Sequence record: PV874203.1
Strand: one strand, 5' to 3'
DNA from: a phage
Length of the DNA: 64,000 bases
Below the pieces are notes generated by a model. The model had not been told where the DNA came from, did no database searches, and saw nothing but the letters and a program-made list of their open reading frames with translations. Made by a program: the position numbers and the translations under genes. Shown here piece by piece: positions 6,778 through 53,474 of this stretch. Numbering within the stretch: the stretch's first letter is position 1; each line of letters opens with the position of its first letter.

Positions 6778-6806
6778 AAGGGGCTTCGTGCCCCTTTTAT
6801 TGTTTT
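6778..6806 (+). terminator. rho-independent terminator
   Basis: AAGGGGC-TTCGT-GCCCCTT stem followed by TTTTATTGTTTT. Confidence 0.65.
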
Positions 6807-6816
6807 GGAGGAACTT

Positions 6817-7785
6817 ATGGGTGCAGGTGGTTTTCGTAAGAATACTGGTCGTAATAACACCACACTCCCGTACAACGTTGGGTTTCTCAATAATGTACAG
6901 GACACAGAAACATATAACGTAGCCGTATATGACGAGCTACAGAAAGTCAGCACAGCTACTAACCAAATGTTCCAAGCCATTGATGAGATTCACGATGAGA
7001 TTGATGTTCGTATCAAAGCTCTTCATGCGATGAATCTACAATTTGATGAGCTTGAGAACAGAATTACCACAGAGATTGAAACAGCTATCGCAGATATTAT
7101 AACACAGATGGGGAATCTCTCCACTGAAGATATTTGGGATAATTCTGTTCAACCTCCTGTAAAATTAGAAAGCACTGTATCTGGCTTTAAGACAAGTATT
7201 GAAGGTAACACAACTAAGATTCAAACGGTAGAAGGGATTGTTAACGACCAAGGTCAAGAGATTGCTTTAGTTCAGACAGAGATTCAAAATATCAATGGAA
7301 GCCTCTCTCAGTATATGAAGCTTTCTGAGTATGAAGCTACTTGGGGTGTTAACTCTACGGTCAACGGAAGATACGCTGGGGTCAAGTTAACTAACAACGG
7401 AACAAACAGTCAATTCCAAGTAACAGCTAATAAGTTTATTGTCGGTGATGGCAGCTCTGGTAATACCCCTTTTGTGTTTGAGGGTGGGAGAGCTAGGATG
7501 GAGTTCGCTGACATAAAGAACGTCAACATCACAACAGCTCAGATTGCCAATGCTAGAATCCAATGGGCACAGATTGATAACGTATCAATCTCCAACGCTC
7601 AGATTCAGAACTTGTCAGCGGATAAGATTACTGCTGGTTCTATGTGGGGTTCTAACTGGCGACTTACCGTTGGAGGTGATTTTGTTATGGGTGGTACAGG
7701 TGGGGCACAATTATGGATGAATGGAAACAGAATAGACTTCTACGATGGAAGTGGTGCTCTAAGAATTAGAATAGGGAGTTGGTAA
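6817..7785 (+). CDS. tail fibre protein
   Basis: Start moved to ATG after GGAGG (track start overlaps previous gene); repeats such as NITTAQIANARIQWAQIDNVSISNAQIQNLSADKITAG typical of phage fibres. Confidence 0.6.
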   Translation: MGAGGFRKNTGRNNTTLPYNVGFLNNVQDTETYNVAVYDELQKVSTATNQMFQAIDEIHDEIDVRIKALHAMNLQFDELENRITTEIETAIADIITQMGNLSTEDIWDNSVQPPVKLESTVSGFKTSIEGNTTKIQTVEGIVNDQGQEIALVQTEIQNINGSLSQYMKLSEYEATWGVNSTVNGRYAGVKLTNNGTNSQFQVTANKFIVGDGSSGNTPFVFEGGRARMEFADIKNVNITTAQIANARIQWAQIDNVSISNAQIQNLSADKITAGSMWGSNWRLTVGGDFVMGGTGGAQLWMNGNRIDFYDGSGALRIRIGSW

Positions 7786-7786
7786 T

Positions 7787-8818
7787 ATGGCATATGGAAT
7801 ATGGACACAACCAGTAGGGCCGGGGCCAGCAACCCCCGCTCCCTTGTTTATTGATAGCGGAAGTACTTTCCCTCAGTTCAAGAATAGCATAAGAGGGAGT
7901 TTTAACTTCAATGGAGCTGGGAGATCTTTCCCTATTAGTGGATGGGATGGTAGTGGTCAGATAGTTATTGTTCCCACTGGTTCTCTATGCTGGCAATGGG
8001 AAGTACCTCCTAACTTAGTCCCTGATGTTTATTGTGTAAATAACATCTATGTAGAAAATACCTCATCTTTTAGGGTGACTCTGAACCAGAATCCCGGCGG
8101 CAATCCTTTATTTGACTGTGGATTCAACGTCTACCAGATTTGGCCTAGAGCTGATAGAAACTATGGGATAACTTTCTCAAATACAGCAGACTACTTTTCC
8201 ATATCAGATGCTGGGGTTGTTGGTCAATGCATTTGGGCTTGGCAGGGGGTCATAAACAATGCCCTTCAGATACCAAATATCGGTGGGTTCAATATGACCA
8301 ATGCTGTTGTATTTGCTAATTGGTCTGATGGAGGACTTGGACTGTCTTATACCTCTGATGACAGAGTTATTCGTGTCTACCAGAACAGACCTTACGTAAA
8401 CGGCAACACTAATGAGGGTGGTTCTGTGTTTGCTAGAATTGCAGTATTCTGCAATGGGGCAGGTGTTCCGGAACACAATGGAGGTTTAAATATCTACTCT
8501 CCGGGAACCACTCAATGTGTATTTTCTACTAACAGAACACCTTTCACTGTGGATACTTTTATAGGCTCAGGAGGTGGTAACACTGGAATGGCGTACCCTA
8601 TGATACCTCTTACTTCTGGAATAGGTGCAATAAAAGGCCAAGGTAGTGGGTGGAGATACCAGCAAATGAGATCTCACACAATGAGTGGCTCTAGTATAGG
8701 AACTGGTTATGGAAGGTACTTATTTCAGTGGAATCAAAATTACGATCTAGGGGCTGACACTGTTGTTAACTTATCAGTTCCTGTAATAAACGCAGCTAAG
8801 GTTTTTGCTGGACTATAA
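7787..8818 (+). CDS. tail fibre / receptor-binding protein (distal part), hypothetical
   Basis: 343 aa, Gly/Asn/Ser-rich beta-type composition, coupled to the preceding fibre gene. Confidence 0.5.
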   Translation: MAYGIWTQPVGPGPATPAPLFIDSGSTFPQFKNSIRGSFNFNGAGRSFPISGWDGSGQIVIVPTGSLCWQWEVPPNLVPDVYCVNNIYVENTSSFRVTLNQNPGGNPLFDCGFNVYQIWPRADRNYGITFSNTADYFSISDAGVVGQCIWAWQGVINNALQIPNIGGFNMTNAVVFANWSDGGLGLSYTSDDRVIRVYQNRPYVNGNTNEGGSVFARIAVFCNGAGVPEHNGGLNIYSPGTTQCVFSTNRTPFTVDTFIGSGGGNTGMAYPMIPLTSGIGAIKGQGSGWRYQQMRSHTMSGSSIGTGYGRYLFQWNQNYDLGADTVVNLSVPVINAAKVFAGL

Positions 8819-8830
8819 CAAGGAGATATT

Positions 8831-9613
8831 ATGGCAATTAAAATGGGTATTGAAGAACTAGACCCAATGGTTCAACAGGCTTCAAAGAAGTATGGAATAC
8901 CAGCTGCTTTGATTCATGCTGTCATCCAAAGGGAGTCTAGTGGACGTCCTACAGTGGCTTCTGGAACTGGTCCTGTAGGTTTAATGCAGATCAGTAAAGG
9001 GTTGGCTAAAGATTATGGTTACAAACTAGAAGACAGACTTGACCCAGCAAAGAATATTGATATGGGTGCTCGCTATATCAGAGATAACCTGAAAGCTTTT
9101 AATGGTGATGTTAAGAAAGCAATGGTTGGTTATTCAGAAGGTATAGGTGGTGCTAAGCAGATGTTCGCTGGTAAGAAAGGGTTTACTCCTCAAGCTCTTG
9201 ACTCAATGAACAACAAGCACTTTCTCCCTTTCTATGGTGATGCAGCTTCTCAGATTGCTAACCCTGTTGGAGCTTTGCAAGCTGTTCAACCAGCTAACCA
9301 ATTTAGTCCGGATACTCTTGATAGGGAGAAGGCTGCACAAGCTCCCACTCAGGCAGAGATTGCTTCTTCTAAGACAGGTGCTTTAGGTGGTAATCCAGTA
9401 GAGTTTTACTCTGATGAAGTGCAGGAAGGTGAAGACCAGAAGCCTCAACAGAACTTTGGTAATGCAGTATTAGGAGTAGCTGCTATGCTTGCTGGTAAAC
9501 CTCCTACTTCTCAAACAGTTCAGAGAGTGAGTACACCTCATGCAGCAGGTTCTCAGTACAGCCCACAAACACAAGCAGTGCTTAGACGTCTGGCTAGCAT
9601 TGGTGTTAAGTAA
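8831..9613 (+). CDS. virion-associated lytic transglycosylase (SLT domain)
   Basis: AALIHAVIQRESSGRPTVASGTGPVGLMQIS matches the SLT catalytic motif (ES...GLMQ). Confidence 0.8.
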   Translation: MAIKMGIEELDPMVQQASKKYGIPAALIHAVIQRESSGRPTVASGTGPVGLMQISKGLAKDYGYKLEDRLDPAKNIDMGARYIRDNLKAFNGDVKKAMVGYSEGIGGAKQMFAGKKGFTPQALDSMNNKHFLPFYGDAASQIANPVGALQAVQPANQFSPDTLDREKAAQAPTQAEIASSKTGALGGNPVEFYSDEVQEGEDQKPQQNFGNAVLGVAAMLAGKPPTSQTVQRVSTPHAAGSQYSPQTQAVLRRLASIGVK

Positions 9614-9632
9614 TAGTCATTAAGGAGGACTT

Positions 9633-10685
9633 ATGTCTTTATTTGGAAAATCAGCTTCTAGCAAAACCACAGTGGCCCCTTCCTCTCAGGTTGATGCCCT
9701 GCTGAAGCAGATTGTTGCTAATGCTCAGAATATGCAGAACAACGATCCGGGATTCATCTCCCAACAGCTGGCTGGGTTTAATGGCAACCAACAAGGTGCT
9801 CTGAATAACTTAGCAGCTTCTACAACTCAAAAGCAATTGGCTGATATGTACACACCTCGTACACAGCAAGGTTTAGACCAACTCAACTCTCTTGCTCAAC
9901 AGTATCAGAATATTGTCAATGGTGGTGGAGTTACGGCTGAGGGTGTTAATAACTTTAGTAAAGGACTAAACAACTCAGCTCTTGCACAAGCTACTAGCAA
10001 AGCAGCTTCTAATGTTTCTCTTGGCAATGGCTATGACTCTGGCTCTCTTCGTAGAGCTGCTGCTCAGGGTGCTGCTTTGAATGGTGCTAACACCAACCTG
10101 TCTCGTACTATCAGTGGCAAGAATATGGGTGTAAGTGCTCTGCAACAAGATCAGAACTTCCAGAGAGGGTTACTTGGTGCTCAATCCGGTCTAGCCGGAC
10201 AGAACCTCAACCTAGGTGCTCAAGGTGTTCAGGCAACTCAACAGGCCATTCAGAATCAACTCATGGCTGGCAATCTGCAACAGCAACAAGCCCAAGCTCA
10301 GGCTGATATTAATTGGCAGAATGCTATCGGCTCTCAGCAGTATGGATGGAATCAGCTTAACAACCAGCTTAATGTACTAAATAGTGTAAGCCCAATGGCT
10401 GGGTACACGATTAAGAATGCTGCTCCGGGGGTTAATACTGGACAACAGCTCCTAGGTGCTGGTATCACTGGATTAGGTATTGCAGGTCGTATGGGTGCTT
10501 TCTCTCCTAATCAACAGACTCAGAATGCTTGGAGTTCCTATAACAACTCAGGTGGGCAGTCTGGTATGGCTGGTCCTATGATTGGAGGTTCTAATCTTTC
10601 TCAACAGAAAGGTCAGTCTAACTGGTTATCCACAACGGGTAATAATATCTTAGGTGGGGTCTTAGGGGCATTCGGAGCAAACTAA
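9633..10685 (+). CDS. Q/N/G-rich internal virion protein, hypothetical
   Basis: 350 aa, low complexity rich in Gln/Asn/Gly/Ala; good RBS (AAGGAGG). Confidence 0.55.
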   Translation: MSLFGKSASSKTTVAPSSQVDALLKQIVANAQNMQNNDPGFISQQLAGFNGNQQGALNNLAASTTQKQLADMYTPRTQQGLDQLNSLAQQYQNIVNGGGVTAEGVNNFSKGLNNSALAQATSKAASNVSLGNGYDSGSLRRAAAQGAALNGANTNLSRTISGKNMGVSALQQDQNFQRGLLGAQSGLAGQNLNLGAQGVQATQQAIQNQLMAGNLQQQQAQAQADINWQNAIGSQQYGWNQLNNQLNVLNSVSPMAGYTIKNAAPGVNTGQQLLGAGITGLGIAGRMGAFSPNQQTQNAWSSYNNSGGQSGMAGPMIGGSNLSQQKGQSNWLSTTGNNILGGVLGAFGAN

Positions 10686-10697
10686 AGGAGATTTAAT

Positions 10698-11666
10698 ATG
10701 GCTTTATTTGGAGGAGGGAATAGTAAAACTACTTCCCAAATGATTCGCCCTGAATACATTCAACAGTATATTGATCAGCTTAATCAACAGATTGGTAATA
10801 CTAGTTCAGGGGATTATGTTTATCGTGACAATGTAGGATTCAATAACAACCAGACAGAAGCTCTTAACAACTTGGCACAATCTGGTGCTCTAGGGACTCT
10901 TTCACAGCAATATATGGATGCATCCGGTCAAGGGTTGGGTTATCTAGATAATGCCTATAAAGGCTATCAGAGCCTCTCTGGACAAGGTGGGATTACTGGA
11001 GAACAGATTGGTGCTCTTGCTGGTCAACTGTATGACGACGATGCTGTTCAGGCAGCTATTACAGCTAATAATGAACAAGTTCAGCAGAACCTAGCACGCA
11101 ACGCTCTTCCTCAGCTAGCTCAGCAGTATTCTGGTCAGCAGGGTTCAGGTGCTCGTATGGCTAAATCTTTTGCTCAAGGTGATGCTCTGAATCAGATGCA
11201 AAGCCAAGCAACAGATATTACTAACAGTGCTTATAACTCGGCTATCAACCAAGCTGAAAGCATTCTCTCTGGTAATAGACAGAATCAGGCAGCTGCTCTC
11301 TCAGGTCTTTCTACTATTGGCTCTAACCTTTCCAATTTAGGTCAACAAGGTGCTGATCTATCTCAACAGCAAATACTAAACCAATGGAAGGCTGGGTTGC
11401 AGCAACAACAGCAACAACAGAATGAATATGATAATGCCTACCAGAATGCTCAGAACGCAGCTAATTGGGGATGGCAGGATATCAACAACCAACTCGGTGC
11501 AGCAGGTGTACTTAACGGCGCTCTCGGACAAACTACAACTACTAAAACATCTGGTGGCAAAGGTGGTTTCCTTGGTGGAGCTATGAGTGGTGCAGCAGCT
11601 GGCTCTTCCTTTGGGCCTTGGGGTGCATTGGCTGGGGGTGTAATCGGTGGGTTGGCTAGTTCTTAA
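10698..11666 (+). CDS. Q/N/G-rich internal virion protein, paralogue of the preceding gene
   Basis: Similar N-terminus and composition to 9633..10685 (MSLFGKSASSKTT vs MALFGGGNSKTTS). Confidence 0.55.
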   Translation: MALFGGGNSKTTSQMIRPEYIQQYIDQLNQQIGNTSSGDYVYRDNVGFNNNQTEALNNLAQSGALGTLSQQYMDASGQGLGYLDNAYKGYQSLSGQGGITGEQIGALAGQLYDDDAVQAAITANNEQVQQNLARNALPQLAQQYSGQQGSGARMAKSFAQGDALNQMQSQATDITNSAYNSAINQAESILSGNRQNQAAALSGLSTIGSNLSNLGQQGADLSQQQILNQWKAGLQQQQQQQNEYDNAYQNAQNAANWGWQDINNQLGAAGVLNGALGQTTTTKTSGGKGGFLGGAMSGAAAGSSFGPWGALAGGVIGGLASS

Positions 11667-11679
11667 TTAGGAGATAAAT

Positions 11680-13329
11680 ATGCAACAGACAACTTATGCT
11701 CAGGTCAGAAGCCGTGACCCGAGAAATACTTTCTATGGTGTTAATCCGGGAGCGGCTTCGGCCTCTCCTTATATGGCTAGACCTGCTCAGACAGCAGATA
11801 TTTCTATGTATCAACGCCCTGCTGTACCTGCTGGGTTATCTGCTCTAGTAGGTCAGGCTTCAGTTGATCATCAGAACATGTTAAATCCTGTTCAGAGTAA
11901 TGGACTTCCTTCTGATATTCCAAATGACGTACAACCTCAAGCACAACAGGCTGTAACTCTCCCTGAGTTTGAGAATCAAGAAACTATGCAAGCTGCTGGA
12001 CTTTCTCCTTCTTCTATTCCTCCGGAATCTACACCTCTTCCGGTGACACCTCCGACTAAGCCGTTAGAAGCTGGTCCTATGGAGTTCACTCCTTCTCAAG
12101 TGGAACAGGCACAAGGGGTGGTTAATACTCTTGCTCAAGGTCAAGATACTGGTGAAGGTATGGCTGCTGCTACTCGTGCTAAAGATCAGGAACGTGTTAA
12201 CAATGATATTATGCAAGTCGCTAAAGCTAAAGACCCTTCAGAAGCTTGGAAGAAGTTACAGAAAGAACCTTTCTATCAAAACTCTAGTTTCTATACAGGC
12301 TTGATGGGTGTAGGTCTTTCAATCATGTCCGGTAAGTCTCCAATTGAAGCTTTCCAAATTGGTCAGGGTATGGCTAACCAAGATGAGACTAAGAAACAAC
12401 TAGAAGCTAACCGTGATGCATTGGTTGAACAAGGTTTCTCTCAAGACTCTATTGCTGCTGCTATTGCAAGCGGTGACCCTTCTCTTCTGAAGATGAAAGC
12501 TAAAGACCCTCTTCAACAGGAAGCTCTATATGCTGCTCGTGAAGAACGTCAGAATGCTGAGTGGGATAGACGTCAACAGATTCAAGAACAGACTATGCGT
12601 GAGCGTGCTGATGAGACTCGCCGTGCCGCTGAAGAAAGAGCTAATATGAACTTTGAACGTCAGAAAGAATTGATTGGCTATCGTGATCAAGTCAAGGCTG
12701 AACGTGCTGAACAAGCTGCTCAGAGTTTTAACTTTAACCCGAAAGAAGTTCGTCTTGCTCAGAATACAGCTGAAGGTACGGTTGCTAAGCAGTGGGCAGA
12801 GAAAGGTGGCCTGTTTAACCAGTCTAACAAAGACTTGGATTTGGCTGATAAGGCTGTTAAGGATAAAGACTATCAGACAGCTCGTTCTGCTTACATGCAG
12901 GCTATCATGAACTCCGCAAGGGCTGAAATCGGTGCTACTCGTTCTCTTACCGAAGAAGACTTGGGGCACTTTGCAGAAGACCCATCAATCTTCGTTCGTG
13001 TTGGCAACAAGTTTGCACTGAAATCTGGATGGCGTCCTACTGATTCTGCTCTTGCTTATGCTCGTAAGCAAGCTAACGTTGGTCACACCTCTGCAATGAA
13101 AGGTGTTGCTGATGCTAAGAGAGCTACGATTGAAGCTTATATCGGTTCTGGTATGGATAAGAAGAGAGCTACTGCATTGGTTAACCGTGCAATCCCTTCT
13201 GGTGGTTTCTATGACCCTCTAGGTGTTTTCTCTGAACAAGCAGAAGAAGCAGTTGGTGGTGTAGCAACCAATCCTAAGCTTAATGGTGCTTTATCAGCTG
13301 TCGAAGACACTAGCTGGTTTACTCAATAA
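11680..13329 (+). CDS. virion/internal protein, hypothetical
   Basis: 549-aa ORF, Pro/Gln-rich N-terminus, charged helical C-terminus; RBS GGAG. Confidence 0.55.
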   Translation: MQQTTYAQVRSRDPRNTFYGVNPGAASASPYMARPAQTADISMYQRPAVPAGLSALVGQASVDHQNMLNPVQSNGLPSDIPNDVQPQAQQAVTLPEFENQETMQAAGLSPSSIPPESTPLPVTPPTKPLEAGPMEFTPSQVEQAQGVVNTLAQGQDTGEGMAAATRAKDQERVNNDIMQVAKAKDPSEAWKKLQKEPFYQNSSFYTGLMGVGLSIMSGKSPIEAFQIGQGMANQDETKKQLEANRDALVEQGFSQDSIAAAIASGDPSLLKMKAKDPLQQEALYAAREERQNAEWDRRQQIQEQTMRERADETRRAAEERANMNFERQKELIGYRDQVKAERAEQAAQSFNFNPKEVRLAQNTAEGTVAKQWAEKGGLFNQSNKDLDLADKAVKDKDYQTARSAYMQAIMNSARAEIGATRSLTEEDLGHFAEDPSIFVRVGNKFALKSGWRPTDSALAYARKQANVGHTSAMKGVADAKRATIEAYIGSGMDKKRATALVNRAIPSGGFYDPLGVFSEQAEEAVGGVATNPKLNGALSAVEDTSWFTQ

Positions 13330-13348
13330 GACCTAAGTCCTGCCTTCT

Positions 13349-13357
13349 ATAATGTAT
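13349..13357 (+). promoter_or_regulatory. TAATGTATA promoter-like motif (candidate phage-specific promoter)
   Basis: TAATGTATATAGGGGG about 40 nt upstream of the 1488-aa gene; the same motif recurs upstream of other genes on both strands. Confidence 0.45.
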
Positions 13358-13396
13358 ATAGGGGGTAGGACATTTTTATTTATAAAAGGAGACGTT

Positions 13397-16300
13397 ATGG
13401 CTAACATTAAACCGTGGGAAGAAGCTTCCAAAGCTCCTGCGTATCTGAATGCCTCTCCGGAGCAACAAGCTCAAATGAGAGAACAATATAAGGCAGCAGG
13501 TGGCTCTATTCCTGAGGAACAACCAGTAGCACAACCACAACAAGAAGAACGTGGTGCTATAGGTGAGTTTGCTCAAGGTGTGTCAAATGCTCTTCAATCC
13601 GGTGGTGCAAACATTGCAGCTAGTGCTGCTAAAGGTATTGGTGGTTTAGTTGAGATTGGTGAGAATCTAGCTGGAGCACAAACTAGTTATGGTAAGCGTA
13701 TCCAAGAGAACTCTCAGAACCTTCTGAAAGAACGTATGGATAAGATTGAGGATGGGATTGGTAAAACTGTCGGTCAATATGCTGGTGTTGCTGGTGATAT
13801 TGGTTTGACAGTTGCTAACCCATTAGCTGCCGCCGCTATCATTGCAGGTCGTGAGACAGGTCGTGCATATGCAGACCAAACCCCTGAAGAGGGAGAAGAT
13901 AAGTCTATTCTAGATGCAGCCTTAGTTGGTGGTGCTAACTATGCGGCTCAGAGAATCCTTCCGGGTGCTGTTGGTACAGCTGAGTCCACACTTGGACGTA
14001 TTGGTCAGAACGTTGCTACTAACGCAGTGGCTGGTGCTAAAGGTGGTGCTCTTGTAGGTGCTGCTGAAGCTCAGAACAAGCATGGAGATGATACAACCTT
14101 TGCTAATGTATTAGAGGGTGCTATCGAAGAAGGTGCTATGGGTGCTGCATTCGGTGGTGCAGTTGGTGGTGTTCATGGTTTGATTAGCCGTCCGGATTCT
14201 GCTGTCTTCAAGAACACTCCAGAGTATGCGAAGACTGATATTGCTGCTGATGATGAACTGATTCGTAGTGCTAAGAATATTGATGAATTGAAAGAAGCTT
14301 ACTCTAAAGCTGAAACTGCTAACGCTGCTTCCGCTCTTAATCTTCTAGATGAGAATGGATTCCGTATCACAGATGCTGTTGCTGTAGATTCTCCTGCTGC
14401 CCAGCGTATTCTTAATACAGACCAAGCTCGTGCTGAGAAAGCTGCTTCTGTTCAGAAAGAACATTCTAATATTCCTGGCCTCAATCCTTTGGCTTCTCCT
14501 GCTAAAGTTCGTGGTAAAGCATTCGCTGATAACGAGCACAACCAGAAGCAAGCTGTTGCTATGAAAGATGCAATGGCTGATTACACAAAGGATAACACTA
14601 AAGCTCTTACAGATGTTCTGGATAATCTTGATCGTGAGTTAGTTTCTCTCCGAGCTTCTGGTGATTTTACTGGTAGTCCGATTGATATTAAGAATCGCAC
14701 ACAAGCTGATCGTGACTTCATTGATGCTTACAAGACTTTCTATAATGAAGCAAACCGATTCAAAGCTCGTGATGGTGAAGACTTTAATAACTTTGTAGAG
14801 AAAGCTACTGAACTACAGAAGATGGCTGACAATGTTTCTCCAGAGATGAAACAAGCTATTGGTGGGTTGAAGAAACTGAAAGGTATGCCTGAAGGTTTTA
14901 ATCCTATCCAAGACGCCTACACTCTGAACAACACAGCTAAGTTCATGAGCAACCAAGACCGTGGTTGGACTTCCCTTACTGATGATGGCTTCCGTGAGAC
15001 TTCTTCTCCTAGTCTGGTTATGAACACCCTTGGTGCTGCTAAGTATGCTCTGAATCGCTTCTCTTCTCAGCGTGCTCGCTCTCAACGTGTTAAGCAACAA
15101 GAATCTAACAGTGAAGCTATCCGCTCTCTGGCTCGTGGTGATTTGGAAGTTGCTCGTGCTAAATCCACTGCTGATGAAGCTCGTGCTAAAATGGAAGAAG
15201 AACCAGTTGTTGATGACATTAAATTTAAGACGCAAAATGACGTAGAAACCGAACCGGTTCGGGAGCCTTCTTCTAGTACTGTGACGGAAGAAAATCTTCC
15301 TTCTTCTGCTCCTCAAGAAACTCCTCTTACAGCTCGTGATTTAGTTGCGCAAAGACGTGCTATCCGTCAGGCTGAACAGCGTCGCGCTGAAGAAGAGGCA
15401 GCAGCTGCTCAAGAAGCTCCGGTCGAACAAGCTCCACAGGCTGAACCTCTCCCTGCTCGTAATCCTTTAGAGGAACGTCGTGCGATGGAACAGCAACGTG
15501 CTCAAGAAGAGGCCACACAGGCTCCAGAACCCACCGTAGAGGAACCAACAGTTAAAGCTGAGCCATTACCTGCTCGTGCTCCTAAAGCTCCTAAGGAAGC
15601 TGTACAGGACGTTAAACCGGCAAGTGGTGTAGAACGTTTAGCTGCTATGTCTAGTGCTGCTCGTCAGGCTACTAAAGATCGTGCAGAACGTTTTGCTCGT
15701 TCTCTGTATTCCAAGGCTGCTAAGGCTAAAGCTACTGCTGAAAACTTCTTGGCTTACAAGGGTGATCCTAAGGAACTGATGCGTCGCATTCGTCAGGAAG
15801 ATAATGCTATCAACACTGAACGTCATGAAGAAATGGCTCGTAACCAGTTAGCTTCTCAGCAAGGTATTGCTACTGCTAAGAACAACACTGTACGAACTAA
15901 TTTTGCTGAATGGGTTAAGGAACGTGGTCTGCCAGAAGATATTGCTACTAAGGCATTACGTGCTGAAGAGAAAGGTTTAGGTGGGAACGTGACTAACTTG
16001 GATAGTTTGAAACGTCGTGCTGAAAGGTTGTATCAGAAGCAGCGTGAGGCTGAGTTTGATAGACTGTACCAAGAAGCTCTGGAAGAGAACAAAGCTTTCG
16101 ATAAGAAGGATGCTCCTAAACTGGTTGACCAGAAGAAAGAGCTTCAGTCTGAGATTGATACTTTGATTGATTCAGAACCTTTACGTCCTGCTCAGAAAGA
16201 TGCTATGCGCAGGCTGATGAATGATTATGTAGATGGGAAGTTTAAATCTTCAGAGAAGGCTGGTAGGGAAGAGGCTTTGGAAGTTGGTCAGATGAAGGAT

Positions 16301-17818
16301 ATTTGGGATGGGTTCATTAACACCTATAACAGAGAAGTGAATGCCTTCAACAAAGCTAACAAGAACTCTCAATACGAAGCTGCTGCTAAACACTTGCAGG
16401 CTCGTGAAGAACGTCTTGCTACTCTGAGAAATAAAGCTCAGGCTCGTTCAGATGCTAAAGCTGCTGTTGAAAATGAACGTAAAACTCTAGAGGCTATTGC
16501 AGCTCAGAAGAGTGAGATTGAGAAGATGATGGAAGGTTTACCTAAACCTGTTCGTGAGGCTCAGGAATCTCGTACATTGAAACAGTTGGCTGCTCACCAT
16601 GATAAGAACTCTCCAGTTCCTCCAGAGAAGTTCCGTAGTTACATTGAACGTATCCATAACGCCGAGTCAGATTACCTTGATCGTCAGCGTCGTTTAACTG
16701 ATGCAGAGGAAGATGCTCGTCAGGCTAAGTGGAATAAGATGTATGAGCAAGCGGAAGAGATGGACCGTAAATTTGATATAGACAAAAGAGTTAAACGCAG
16801 TGAAGAGCTTAAAGCGGCTCAGAAGCGTGAGAATGATCTCATGGCAGTACAACGTCAACGTGACGACATTCATCGTCGCCTGATGCATACTTTGGAAGAT
16901 AAAGGCATATCTAAAGAGGATGCTGAAGCATTTGCTGGTTCCTACATGGATAACCGTTATGCACTTCTTGATAAGCCTATGACTCCTACTGAACATCAGA
17001 ATGCTCGTTCTCGTATCGAAGCTGATGTTGAGAAGTTTGCTAAGAAGTACGAATCAATGACTCCTATCGAGAAAGAGATTGTTAAGGTTACTGGAGATAC
17101 TGAAGGTAAGCTTGATAACTTGGATGCGGATACTAGGAAGGCTATTGAGGAGGCTCAGAAGGTTGACTCTGATATTAAGAAATTGCAAGAGGAAGAGTTG
17201 GAGATGGAGAAGATTCGTTCTGCTCTGCCTGATGATGAAAAATCTCAAGCAAATTCTGATATCTTGGAAAGTATCAAACAGCAGGAAGAAGTCTTTGCTG
17301 ATAAAGTAGAGAAAGCTTTCTTGAGTGGGAAGAGCTTGGATGAGTTAGCTAGTGTGGCTGAAGTTTTAGACAGGGTTCATGGTGCAGATAAGGCTGGTAA
17401 CAACCGTCGCTTTGTACGTGCATTGCAGACTGCTGCTGAAAACAAGAAGAAGTATGGTGATAATCCAGTAGCTTGGTTTAGTGCTGATGATTACTCTGCC
17501 ATTGCTAAACTTGGCGCTTCTTCCGCAGGTGGTAACAAATCTAGAGCACTGGAGAAGATCTTTGGTTCTACAGCTGAACAGGCTAAGAGTAAGTTGCTTG
17601 GTAGGGATGATGTAGCGAAGATGAGACGTGTGATTGAAGAGAACCCTGATATTAAGATTCCTTCTTACAAGACAACGAATCGTACTGAGTACTTGCAGTT
17701 CTTGGAGAAGTTTAATGACGAAGGGAAGCCGAAGATTAAACGTGGCTCATTGTCAGAGAAGCTTGAACGCAGTAAGCGTCAATCGAGACTCCGTGTAAGA
17801 GTTCGACCTAAGGAGTGA
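13397..17818 (+). CDS. large internal virion / ejection-type protein, hypothetical
   Basis: Start set at ATG after AAGGAG (track start 13352 lacks RBS); 1474 aa, Ala/Glu/Lys/Arg-rich helical composition; size and position fit an internal core protein of a podovirus. Confidence 0.55.
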   Translation: MANIKPWEEASKAPAYLNASPEQQAQMREQYKAAGGSIPEEQPVAQPQQEERGAIGEFAQGVSNALQSGGANIAASAAKGIGGLVEIGENLAGAQTSYGKRIQENSQNLLKERMDKIEDGIGKTVGQYAGVAGDIGLTVANPLAAAAIIAGRETGRAYADQTPEEGEDKSILDAALVGGANYAAQRILPGAVGTAESTLGRIGQNVATNAVAGAKGGALVGAAEAQNKHGDDTTFANVLEGAIEEGAMGAAFGGAVGGVHGLISRPDSAVFKNTPEYAKTDIAADDELIRSAKNIDELKEAYSKAETANAASALNLLDENGFRITDAVAVDSPAAQRILNTDQARAEKAASVQKEHSNIPGLNPLASPAKVRGKAFADNEHNQKQAVAMKDAMADYTKDNTKALTDVLDNLDRELVSLRASGDFTGSPIDIKNRTQADRDFIDAYKTFYNEANRFKARDGEDFNNFVEKATELQKMADNVSPEMKQAIGGLKKLKGMPEGFNPIQDAYTLNNTAKFMSNQDRGWTSLTDDGFRETSSPSLVMNTLGAAKYALNRFSSQRARSQRVKQQESNSEAIRSLARGDLEVARAKSTADEARAKMEEEPVVDDIKFKTQNDVETEPVREPSSSTVTEENLPSSAPQETPLTARDLVAQRRAIRQAEQRRAEEEAAAAQEAPVEQAPQAEPLPARNPLEERRAMEQQRAQEEATQAPEPTVEEPTVKAEPLPARAPKAPKEAVQDVKPASGVERLAAMSSAARQATKDRAERFARSLYSKAAKAKATAENFLAYKGDPKELMRRIRQEDNAINTERHEEMARNQLASQQGIATAKNNTVRTNFAEWVKERGLPEDIATKALRAEEKGLGGNVTNLDSLKRRAERLYQKQREAEFDRLYQEALEENKAFDKKDAPKLVDQKKELQSEIDTLIDSEPLRPAQKDAMRRLMNDYVDGKFKSSEKAGREEALEVGQMKDIWDGFINTYNREVNAFNKANKNSQYEAAAKHLQAREERLATLRNKAQARSDAKAAVENERKTLEAIAAQKSEIEKMMEGLPKPVREAQESRTLKQLAAHHDKNSPVPPEKFRSYIERIHNAESDYLDRQRRLTDAEEDARQAKWNKMYEQAEEMDRKFDIDKRVKRSEELKAAQKRENDLMAVQRQRDDIHRRLMHTLEDKGISKEDAEAFAGSYMDNRYALLDKPMTPTEHQNARSRIEADVEKFAKKYESMTPIEKEIVKVTGDTEGKLDNLDADTRKAIEEAQKVDSDIKKLQEEELEMEKIRSALPDDEKSQANSDILESIKQQEEVFADKVEKAFLSGKSLDELASVAEVLDRVHGADKAGNNRRFVRALQTAAENKKKYGDNPVAWFSADDYSAIAKLGASSAGGNKSRALEKIFGSTAEQAKSKLLGRDDVAKMRRVIEENPDIKIPSYKTTNRTEYLQFLEKFNDEGKPKIKRGSLSEKLERSKRQSRLRVRVRPKE

Positions 17819-53398: not shown

Positions 53399-53474
53399 TG
53401 GTGCACCCTACAGGACTCGAACCTGTAACCAACGACTTAGAAGGTCGCTGCTCTGTCCATTGAGCTAAGGGTGC
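53399..53474 (-). tRNA. tRNA-Arg (anticodon UCU), CCA encoded
   Basis: Minus-strand cloverleaf: 7-bp acceptor stem GCACCCU/AGGGUGC, D-arm GCUC/GAGC, anticodon loop CUUCUAA, T-arm ACAGG-UUCGAGU-CCUGU, 3' ACCA. Confidence 0.85.

Follow-up and report, generated by a model that had tools for sequence, protein, structure and literature searches.

What two adjacent genes for glutamine-, asparagine-, and glycine-rich proteins contribute to a phage particle is the question raised by one locus in the DNA analyzed here, a 64,000-nt stretch of phage sequence (PV874203.1, referred to below as the window). The original prediction regarded the products as paralogs of a virion module, and as internal virion or ejection proteins of prion-like or disordered composition that could form a flexible channel or scaffold. 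Both ORFs are located on the + strand: paralog A (9633..10685) encodes 350 aa (36.0 kDa, pI 9.8) and paralog B (10698..11666) encodes 322 aa (33.4 kDa, pI 4.3), and the quoted N-termini, MSLFGKSASSKTT and MALFGGGNSKTTS, are both present. Two strong, properly spaced Shine-Dalgarno sites can be read upstream of the start codons, AAGGAGG for A (9622..9628, +; 4 nt before ATG 9633) and AAGGAG for B (10685..10690, +; 7 nt before ATG 10698); the latter shares the last base of A's stop codon.

Paralogy and identity of the pair

The unusual composition of both proteins was confirmed. Gln, Asn, Gly, Ala, and Ser together account for 62.3% of A and 61.2% of B (33.6% in window ORFs), and Gln plus Asn for 26.9% and 24.8%, compared with a background of 10.6% among window ORFs of at least 150 aa. 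Charged residues (D+E+K+R) make up 6.6% of A and 9.3% of B versus 23.8% of window ORFs, and the residue composition of the two proteins includes no Cys or His. The paralogy is also real and exceeds shared composition: BLASTP with compositional adjustment aligns A and B over 270 aa at 32% identity (E = 2e-13), their Smith-Waterman alignment scores 277, with shuffles at 91 +/- 12 (z = 16) and 20-aa block shuffles at 108 +/- 13 (z = 12.8), and both match phrog_4287, a 'DNA ejection protein' family (A, residues 1-350, E = 7e-117; B, residues 1-310, E = 1.9e-107). The QQ...LNN...GQ stretches that had been described as repeated are not repeats; the best off-diagonal self-alignments score 58 and 59, inside the shuffle range, and self-alignment revealed no internal tandem or degenerate repeats beyond shuffles in either protein.

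The genomic context is indeed that of a virion module, with tail-needle, DUF6453, and SLT transglycosylase genes upstream of the pair and two large virion-protein genes downstream. The ejection-protein block opens with a gp20-like SLT lytic transglycosylase gene (8831..9613, +; 260 aa; Pfam SLT PF01464, E = 1.2e-23; phrog_12507 'transglycosylase', E = 1.9e-174), whose product is 96.9% identical to gp20 of phage SU10. Paralog B is followed by a gp23-like ejection protein gene in the gp15-like 'tunnel' position (11680..13329, +; 549 aa; phrog_12130, E = 0; 86.2% identity to SU10 gp23) and, in the gp16-like position, by the gene for a gp24-like giant ejection protein (13397..17818, +), which is 97.6% identical to SU10 gp24 and likewise comprises 1473 aa. 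Its start is placed at ATG 13397, which is preceded by the Shine-Dalgarno sequence AAAGGAGA; the match to phrog_14629 begins at residue 16 of the ORF as listed. The gp23-gp24 spacer contains a terminator-like hairpin with a 15-bp stem, followed by a U-run (13337..13371, +; folding energy -22.8 kcal/mol, z = -3.0).

Judged by its sequence, the phage is another isolate of the genus Kuravirus, the phiEco32/SU10-type coliphages, as its nucleotide identity to 71 Kuravirus genomes is 92-96%. A is 97.4% identical to SU10 gp21 and B is 96.3% identical to SU10 gp22; lengths (350 and 322 aa) and neighbors (SLT gp20, gp23, and gp24) are equal, and there is no difference of substance between the two pairs. 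In SU10 phage preparations, mass spectrometry identified gp21 (35.9 kDa, 53% coverage, 11 peptides) and gp22 (33.3 kDa, 49% coverage) (PMC4281155); the masses calculated for A and B are 36.0 and 33.4 kDa. Moreover, virions of SU10 contain gp20-24, genome-release intermediates lack them, and gp20 has been named an ejection protein with transglycosylase activity (PMC9509320), while gp23 is a virion protein lost upon genome release (PMC9509320, PMC4281155). Because they occur in virions and are missing from the genome-release intermediates, SU10 gp21 and gp22 are ejection proteins. Transferred through sequence identity, this evidence upholds the proposal of internal virion or ejection proteins, and A and B correspond to gp21 and gp22, whose status as ejection proteins is already documented. 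The observation is genuine, but most of it was known before, since the SU10 proteomics had already been published. The 'DNA ejection/injection proteins' of phiEco32, 172-1, NJ01, and other Kuravirus phages likewise belong to PHROG 4287, and as a finding about the window the pair is ordinary, dozens of GenBank records already annotating such genes as ejection proteins. The gene order SLT, gp21, gp22, gp23, gp24 is identical in SU10, 172-1, and one distant contig; that contig has an A copy of only 43% identity, and its genes run SLT, A, B, ~550 aa, ~1450 aa.

Predicted helical core and glycine tail

With a 58-sequence alignment (A4), AlphaFold2 models B as an all-helical protein, with helices at residues 80-95, 101-111, 114-143, 150-212, and 219-275 and a pLDDT of 80-92 over residues 90-205; confidence is low in residues 1-80 and 274-322. 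The predicted α-helical core (aa 80-212; 10935..11333, +) includes the G-S-G-A-R motif of the family, which in relatives reads GSSRAGVAQG. It is followed by the Q/N-richest helix (aa 213-275; 11334..11522, +; 45% Q+N in the best 60-aa window), which is predicted at a pLDDT of 45-68 and ends with a conserved W-x-Q/D-I/L-N-N-Q-L motif. The Gly-rich C-terminus of B (~50 residues), which includes the glycine-zipper tail (aa 289-322, GGFLGGAMSGAAAGSSFGPWGALAGGVIGGLASS; 11562..11663, +), is the only part modelled without structure, and within the B family conservation peaks in the glycine tail (82% mean identity versus 46-56% elsewhere). As it is unstructured in the model yet most conserved, these results suggest that the gp22 C-terminus is a functional membrane or oligomerization segment rather than a floppy linker. 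Paralog A carries two such segments, namely a Gly-rich hydrophobic segment 1 (aa 266-292, GVNTGQQLLGAGITGLGIAGRMGAFSP; 10428..10508, +), which in the alignment lies opposite the beginning of the glycine tail of B and shows 71% mean identity across the A family, and a terminal Gly-rich segment 2 (aa 336-350, GNNILGGVLGAFGAN; 10638..10682, +). The Gly/Ala-rich tails are weakly hydrophobic; the best 19-aa Kyte-Doolittle windows, which in A falls in segment 1, reach 1.16 (A) and 0.94 (B), below the usual threshold for a transmembrane helix.

The helical model bears on the possibility that the two proteins are intrinsically disordered, prion-like Q/N proteins that act as flexible filler, lubricant, or capsid scaffold without a defined fold. 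Several features of A and B agree with this reading: Q+N accounts for 25-27% of all residues and for 45-47% of the richest 60-aa window, charge is very low, and AlphaFold2 confidence is low at both ends of B (residues 1-80 and 274-322); in addition, the ejection proteins remained unresolved when the SU10 virion was reconstructed (PMC9509320). However, known ejection proteins cannot be seen in virions either, although they fold into channels once released. A fold-less filler is very unlikely, because the helical core is predicted with confidence (pLDDT 80-92), conservation is position-specific, with N, Q, G, and W residues staying invariant between families that share 25-40% identity, internal repeats are absent, and the segment with the least 'structure' is conserved best. 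Of the prion-like traits, only strong Q/N enrichment was found; a stable fold is predicted, their conservation is not of composition only, and degenerate repeats are lacking. The suggestion of a 'flexible channel or scaffold' therefore stands in part: a channel role agrees with the published SU10 model and with the family links described below, whereas disorder is not supported.

Foldseek hits of a first AlphaFold2 model (pLDDT 50) to chemoreceptor, colicin, and Tc-toxin helical hairpins in the PDB were rejected as uninformative because the model was poor and the matches reached only E > 0.08. Sequence searches against the PDB with each protein and with a 26-sequence profile gave no match below E = 0.5, so that no relative by sequence has a solved structure, and a BFVD search returned mainly uncharacterised phage members of the family, adding no function. 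A full-text literature search retrieved no paper with both 'ejection protein' and 'glycine zipper'.

Relatives beyond Kuravirus

Profile comparisons place gp21 and gp22 in a large family, PHROG 4287, together with LUZ24 gp53/Pa223 gp56, a link that is new here. The family profile search returned 471 representative clusters at E <= 1e-3, 80 of them at E <= 1e-10. Over these hundreds of clusters, conservation is position-specific, with the invariant N, Q, G, and W residues retained at 25-40% identity, and invariant or near-invariant alignment columns also extend across the two paralogs. The members would make up a widespread podovirus family, and they appear to share a layout that consists, in order, of a Gly-rich N-terminus, a T-rich stretch, an α-helical Q/N-rich core, a T-rich/poly-Gly linker, and a glycine-zipper tail of 30-35 residues at the extreme C-terminus. 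In other phages, the family domain is found at the N-terminus of longer proteins (650-1600 aa), and one of these bears the annotation 'internal virion protein D'. A motif of these long fusion proteins, LLAAGLGMMSGxSPYAxxNIGxGG, resembles residues 203-232 of the window gp23; when this 'Rosetta stone' link between gp21/gp22 and gp23 was examined, pairwise BLASTP gave E = 3e-4 and 0.016, phmmer/jackhmmer nothing, and a motif HMM E = 1.6.

Among the relatives is LUZ24 gp53 (313 aa; PHROG 7477), by size and position the ortholog of Pa223 gp56 in Bruynoghevirus. It matches phrog_4287 (E = 2e-10) and the family HMM (5e-23), and the bridging proteins P0133 and P0148 match both PHROGs (4287 and 7477). 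In Smith-Waterman comparisons with LUZ24 gp53, B reaches z = 10.8, whereas the value for A (z = 2.0) is not significant. An earlier hhalign comparison of profile A1 with LUZ24 gp53 as a lone sequence was negative (probability 1.6%), a result that the HMM-based tests overturned. Like the window pair, LUZ24 gp53 possesses GG-K-TT near the N-terminus, Q/N helices, a T-rich and poly-G linker, and a glycine tail; it is similar in size and is encoded upstream of virion proteins of ~505 aa and ~1050 aa. It differs by ~25 additional N-terminal residues, and Bruynoghevirus has a single copy in place of the tandem pair. Pa223 gp56 is a virion protein by mass spectrometry and has been proposed to be the outer-membrane channel of the ejectosome, a role predicted from transmembrane predictors and an AlphaFold3 nonamer; its tail, which is homologous to the window tails, was called transmembrane by MemBrain (preprint 10.1101/2025.06.11.659172).

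In Grimontviridae (7-11, GAP52, Privateer gp018) and many metagenomic members, the family spans residues 1 to ~320 (E = 3e-40 against profile A1). The gene occupies the same module position as the window pair, and according to its record Privateer gp018 was found in virions by mass spectrometry. In contrast to the window, these phages have one gene, and its product carries ~90 additional C-terminal residues that constitute an S74 self-cleaving chaperone domain, for which the cleavage motif is S-D-x-x-x-K. PF13884 (Peptidase_S74) was detected in P0171 and P0194, and the domain is also present in P0121 and in the GAP52 and Privateer copies; a Pfam search of A and B gave no match to PF13884. In the alignment, the S-D-A-S/T-L/M-K-K motif that opens the S74 domain starts exactly where the gp22 tail ends, and the start of the domain coincides with the exact C-terminal end of gp22, gp7, and gp53, a correspondence that is likewise new here; in these homologs, self-cleavage would thus uncover the same tail.

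P22 gp7 (PF25688, PHROG 598), which is assigned to the outer membrane, is likewise encoded by the first ejection gene past the needle gene; as in the window proteins, its middle is rich in Q and N and its terminal tail is near-identical in style (...GGGASGAIAGAGLAKLIGSSTPWGAAIGGGIGLLGSLF). A further similarity is a KGGKGG stretch, which according to the P22 gp7 record becomes the N-terminus once the first 20 residues are removed. The hhalign comparison of the two families gave 94.3% probability (E = 1.1e-7) over 35 low-complexity columns of the C-terminal tail only, and Smith-Waterman comparison with P22 gp7 gave z = 4.5 for B and z = -0.1 for A. P22 gp7 is 229 aa long versus 322-350 aa in the window, and the central regions show no significant alignment. 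Neither A nor B matches the gp7 family PF25688 in Pfam at E <= 0.1, and the family HMM scores neither P22 gp7 nor T7 gp14 significantly. A glycine-zipper C-terminal tail appears to be common to gp21/gp22 and P22 gp7, which is new here; common ancestry of the whole proteins is unproven.

B is nearer than A to the single-copy GAP52 and Privateer homologs, LUZ24 gp53, and P22 gp7, and a family HMM search of GAP52, Privateer, and LUZ24 detected no hidden second paralog. The acidic copy, gp22, is ancestral-like and would retain the ancestral layout, and gp21 is the diverged basic copy, a distinction also new here. In particular, A lacks ~23 residues of the central conserved segment present in B and the wider family and has a C-terminal extension. 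The missing residues, the divergent C-terminus, and the failure of A to show detectable similarity to LUZ24 gp53 and P22 gp7 might indicate that one paralog is a redundant or decaying duplicate without a role of its own. This is very unlikely, as in relatives both genes keep their full length, Shine-Dalgarno sites, and adjacency down to 43% identity, the A family conserves blocks of its own (68-71% identity) as well as its basic charge, and mass spectrometry of SU10 virions shows abundant gp21 at the coverage given above (PMC4281155). The charge split itself is kept across relatives, with a median pI of 9.8 in the A family and 4.3 in the B family.

A putative trans-envelope channel

In podovirus ejection operons, the gene for a gp14-like protein precedes those for a gp15-like protein of 430-980 aa and a gp16-like protein of 600-1340 aa (PMC8954989). 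A and B take the gp14-like place in this order, being located upstream of the 549-aa and 1473-aa genes on the same strand with spacers of 12-67 nt; the gp14-like protein is encoded by a single gene, 196-240 aa in 14 phages (PMC8954989), whereas the window has two genes (350 and 322 aa). T7 gp14 and DEV gp73/N4 gp52 are outer-membrane ejection proteins that have been found experimentally to form pores, and for T7 gp14 and DEV gp73 the outer-membrane role was tested by fractionation and planar-bilayer experiments.

We consider it probable that the ejection proteins gp21 and gp22 are a duplicated, gp14/gp7-like, membrane-inserting component of a trans-envelope channel. Since the SU10 orthologs are near-identical, the proteins can be taken to be made late, packaged with DNA inside the head, and released at infection by way of the tail nozzle, along with the gp20 transglycosylase, gp23, and the giant gp24. 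Gene position, homology to LUZ24 gp53/Pa223 gp56, and the P22 gp7 tail suggest that the pair corresponds to the small 'gp14/gp7-like' ejection protein. Once released, the helical cores may oligomerize into a tube that prolongs the nozzle, and the glycine-zipper tails may insert into a membrane, most likely the outer one, opening the first segment of a trans-envelope DNA channel. Because opposite charge is conserved and adjacency is strict, it is suggested that gp21 and gp22 co-assemble as a hetero-oligomer or as two stacked rings.

The opposite charges of the two paralogs could also suit two environments, and gp21 and gp22 might be ejection proteins that form a periplasmic tunnel or an inner-membrane anchor rather than an outer-membrane pore; as variants, each membrane would receive one paralog, or both would prolong the nozzle, with gp23 or gp24 forming the pores. 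At 322-350 aa, the proteins exceed known outer-membrane pore proteins, the predicted helices 150-212 and 219-275 could cover much of the periplasm, and elsewhere the domain stands at the N-terminus of the 650-1600 aa proteins that include 'internal virion protein D'. However, by gene order the pair fills the gp14/gp7 slot, upstream of gp15-sized and gp16-sized genes, and the closest relatives with a functional proposal, Pa223 gp56 and P22 gp7, are assigned to the outer membrane; a tunnel or anchor is thus unlikely. Within the favored reading of a membrane-inserting channel component, a more specific version is possible, though we hold it only tentatively: the gp21/gp22 hetero-oligomer may be a double-length form of the P22 gp7/T7 gp14 pore, the glycine zippers piercing the membrane in an ancient superfamily of P22-, LUZ24-, and phiEco32-like podoviruses, with an S74 domain that ancestrally held the tail inactive or pre-assembled and was lost at the Kuravirus duplication.

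The opening of the outer membrane by short-tailed phages is still being worked out one phage at a time. The superfamily proposed here comprises Kuravirus gp21/gp22, Bruynoghevirus gp56, and the S74-bearing Grimontviridae proteins, together with P22 gp7 through its tail. The superfamily link, the glycine tail as the most constrained segment, and the conserved acidic/basic pair could guide structural work on therapeutic phages of the genera Kuravirus and Bruynoghevirus.

Two paralogous proteins very probably carried and ejected with the genome

Proteins A (9633-10685, 350 amino acids) and B (10698-11666, 322 amino acids) are encoded on the same strand by ORFs that begin with the N-termini originally quoted and follow strong ribosome-binding sites (AAGGAGG at 9622-9628 and AAGGAG at 10685-10690, respectively). 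As the gaps to adjacent genes measure 12-19 nt, the block reads as one operon. The composition of both proteins is clearly unusual, which confirms the observation behind the original prediction. In particular, Gln and Asn make up 26.9% of A and 24.8% of B (10.6% across window ORFs of 150 amino acids or more), Gln, Asn, Gly, Ala and Ser together 62.3% and 61.2% (background 33.6%), and charged residues (Asp, Glu, Lys, Arg) 6.6% and 9.3% (background 23.8%); Cys and His are absent from both. A and B are paralogs, beyond mere compositional likeness: a composition-adjusted BLASTP alignment covers 270 residues at 32% identity (E = 2e-13), and the Smith-Waterman score of 277 exceeds those obtained when the whole sequence is shuffled (91 +/- 12, z = 16) or when it is shuffled in blocks of 20 residues to preserve local composition (108 +/- 13, z = 12.8). 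Along their entire length, both match PHROG 4287 'DNA ejection protein' (E = 7e-117 for A, 1.9e-107 for B). The "repeated stretches" proposed earlier, however, are not repeats: aligned with themselves off the diagonal, the proteins score at best 58 and 59, inside the shuffle range.

The 2-kb stretch encoding A and B is 92-96% identical to 71 genomes of Escherichia and Shigella phages of the genus Kuravirus (Gordonclarkvirinae), including SR02, MN05, 172-1 and SU10. The genes for the needle, the DUF6453 protein, the SLT transglycosylase, A, B, the 549-amino-acid protein and the approx. 1473-amino-acid protein correspond one-to-one with SU10 gp18-gp24; identities to gp20, gp21, gp22, gp23 and gp24 are 96.9, 97.4, 96.3, 86.2 and 97.6%. 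Moreover, the computed masses of A (36.0 kDa) and B (33.4 kDa) agree with those published for gp21 (35.9 kDa) and gp22 (33.3 kDa). Proteomics of SU10 preparations detected gp21 (53% coverage, 11 peptides) and gp22, the 'DNA injection protein' (49% coverage) (PMC4281155). A cryo-EM study reports that SU10 virions contain gp20-24, though unresolved in the map, and that genome-release intermediates are devoid of them; it terms them ejection proteins prolonging the nozzle into a channel that crosses the periplasm (PMC9509320); a comparative paper on YF01 makes the same assignment genus-wide. Through orthology with SU10, packaging in the head and exit with the DNA are thus established for A and B, which are very probably ejection proteins. 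The ejection-protein reading, with its possible channel, was therefore correct. Absence from virions combined with homology to an enzyme had been named as evidence against it; the orthologs are in virions, and searches of Pfam with A and B matched no family, enzymatic or otherwise.

Neighboring genes

Two hairpins border genes of this region. On the + strand, a 15-bp, GC-containing stem followed by a U-run (13337-13371; -22.8 kcal/mol, z = -3.0) lies within the 67 nt that separate gp23 from gp24, ahead of the Shine-Dalgarno site AAAGGAGA and ATG 13397, and could be a partial terminator that reduces the dose of the giant gp24. The gp24 start at 13352 from a mechanical ORF listing lies inside this hairpin and is probably spurious (SU10 gp24 has 1473 amino acids). 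Just past the end of the nozzle gene (6773), a GC-rich hairpin of 7 bp, readable on both strands (6778-6796), is flanked by T-runs on either side. The needle gene probably starts at ATG 6817 rather than at the listed TTG 6751, because its PHROG match opens at residue 23 and the shorter protein has 322 amino acids, as does SU10 gp18; this hairpin would therefore be intergenic. Between the tail-needle and SLT ejection genes lies a + strand gene (7787-8818) for a 343-amino-acid DUF6453 protein (PF20051; phrog_1265 'membrane protein'). Unlike its neighbors, this protein contains six Cys and ten Trp residues. The SU10 ortholog, gp19, is outside the gp20-24 ejection set and does not appear in the 2014 mass-spectrometry list as consulted. 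A tRNA-Arg gene (anticodon TCT) is located on the - strand at 53399-53474, in the early/middle region.

Fold, duplication and charge

With a shallow alignment, AlphaFold2 yielded a poor model (pLDDT 50), whereas 58 diverse family members gave an all-helical one, with residues 90-205 at pLDDT 80-92. Helices are predicted at 80-95, 101-111, 114-143 and 150-212, together with a lower-confidence long helix (219-275) spanning the Q/N-richest stretch; coil is modeled only for the final approx. 50 residues. In both paralogs, N-x-x-Q-x-x-A near residue 50, Arg153 and W-x-Q-I/L-N-N-x-L are invariant or nearly so, and conservation within the B family peaks in the glycine tail (mean identity 82% versus 46-56% elsewhere). 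The confident helical core, the position-specific invariant residues and the conserved tail argue against the prion-like or disordered character originally suggested.

One metagenomic contig, with an A copy of just 43% identity, retains the tandem pair and its neighbors, while Grimontviridae and Bruynoghevirus have a single copy. The single-copy proteins are nearer to B (Smith-Waterman 317 and 315) than to A (241 and 179), as are LUZ24 gp53 (z = 10.8 versus 2.0) and P22 gp7 (z = 4.5 versus -0.1). From its conserved central segment, A has lost approx. 23 residues, and at the C-terminus it has gained an extension of approx. 60 residues, closed by another small glycine segment. A comparison drawing on homolog sets P0001-P0045 and P0052-P0101 revealed that the gp21-type A family is basic (median pI 9.8, median net charge +6) and the gp22-type B family acidic (median pI 4.3, median net charge -8, none above pI 5.0); no basic member was found among 45 B-family clusters. 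This opposite charge is a conserved split and hints at heteromeric pairing.

The wider family and a possible membrane role

Searching 1.84 billion cluster representatives with the family profile recovered 471 members at E <= 1e-3 (80 at E <= 1e-10) in three recurring architectures: stand-alone proteins of approx. 300-350 amino acids ending in a glycine-zipper tail (GGAMSGAAAGSxFGPWGAxxGGxxGG); proteins of approx. 400-430 amino acids with an additional C-terminal Peptidase_S74 intramolecular-chaperone domain; and proteins of 650-1600 amino acids with the family domain at the N-terminus, one annotated 'internal virion protein D'. The S74-bearing single copy occurs in the prolate podophages 7-11, GAP52 and Privateer and in Aeromonas relatives; PF13884 was matched in homologs P0171 and P0194, and the phrog_4287 profile itself continues through the domain. 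S74 on an internal ejection protein is unusual, because the domain normally accompanies trimeric tail fibers and spikes. S74 domains self-cleave once they have assisted trimeric folding. As the S74 motif S-D-A-S/T-L/M-K-K begins, in the alignment, exactly at the point where the sequences stop in gp22, P22 gp7, LUZ24 gp53 and other stand-alone members, mature S74-type proteins would share the same C-terminal tail. The domain directly follows the glycine tail in the GAP52 (6974-8206) and Privateer (6980-8209) loci and in P0121, P0125, P0171 and P0194; P0181 instead bears an N-terminal Hint/intein-like domain.

In many relatives of 650-1600 amino acids, the gp21/22-like domain is fused to a long C-terminal region, in which P0154, P0171, P0178, P0183, P0191, P0211, P0233 and others conserve a hydrophobic motif (LLAAGLGMMSGxSPYAxxNIGxGG). 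The motif resembles gp23 YTGLMGVGLSIMSGKSPIEAFQIGQG (12286-12375, residues approx. 203-232; pairwise BLASTP E = 3e-4), but HMM tests did not reach significance; a gene-fusion link between gp21/22 and gp23 is possible.

LUZ24 gp53 (313 amino acids) matches phrog_4287 (E = 2e-10) and the broadened family HMM (5e-23). It lies upstream of virion proteins of 505 and 1055 amino acids and corresponds in size and position to Pa223 gp56, a virion protein confirmed by mass spectrometry and proposed as a T7-gp14-like outer-membrane channel because transmembrane helices are predicted in its C-terminal part (278-291 and 296-311) and AlphaFold3 models a nonamer as a tube (10.1101/2025.06.11.659172). P22 gp7 is classed with T7 gp14 as an outer-membrane ejection protein (PMC8954989) and, as stated in the DEV paper, partitions into lipid nanodiscs (PMC11445570). 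Its processed N-terminus carries KGGKGG, its middle is rich in Q/N, and its tail is strikingly similar to that of gp22. When the family profile was compared with that of 21 gp7 homologs, the probability was 94.3% (E = 1.1e-7), but only over 35 tail columns; the family HMM did not score P22 gp7 significantly, and neither A nor B matched the gp7 family PF25688. P22 gp7 thus has a module in common with the family, probably of common origin, and is not a demonstrated whole-length homolog.

Within the ejection operon, A and B may take the place of gp14/gp7, gp23 that of the tunnel protein and gp24 that of the large inner-membrane/cytoplasmic protein; the SLT enzyme, joined to gp16 in T7, has a gene of its own here (gp20). 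After release, the helical cores of A and B would form a tube prolonging the nozzle, the acidic and basic paralogs probably co-assembling. Their glycine-zipper tails would embed in a membrane, most likely the outer one. Weak points of this model are the merely mild hydrophobicity of the tail and the partly predictive nature of the functional assignments of the closest relatives, gp56 and gp7; a role for A and B as a putative outer-membrane channel element is accordingly proposed tentatively. Their protein identity and virion fate were already known, and their family-level connections represent incremental leads, short of discovery.
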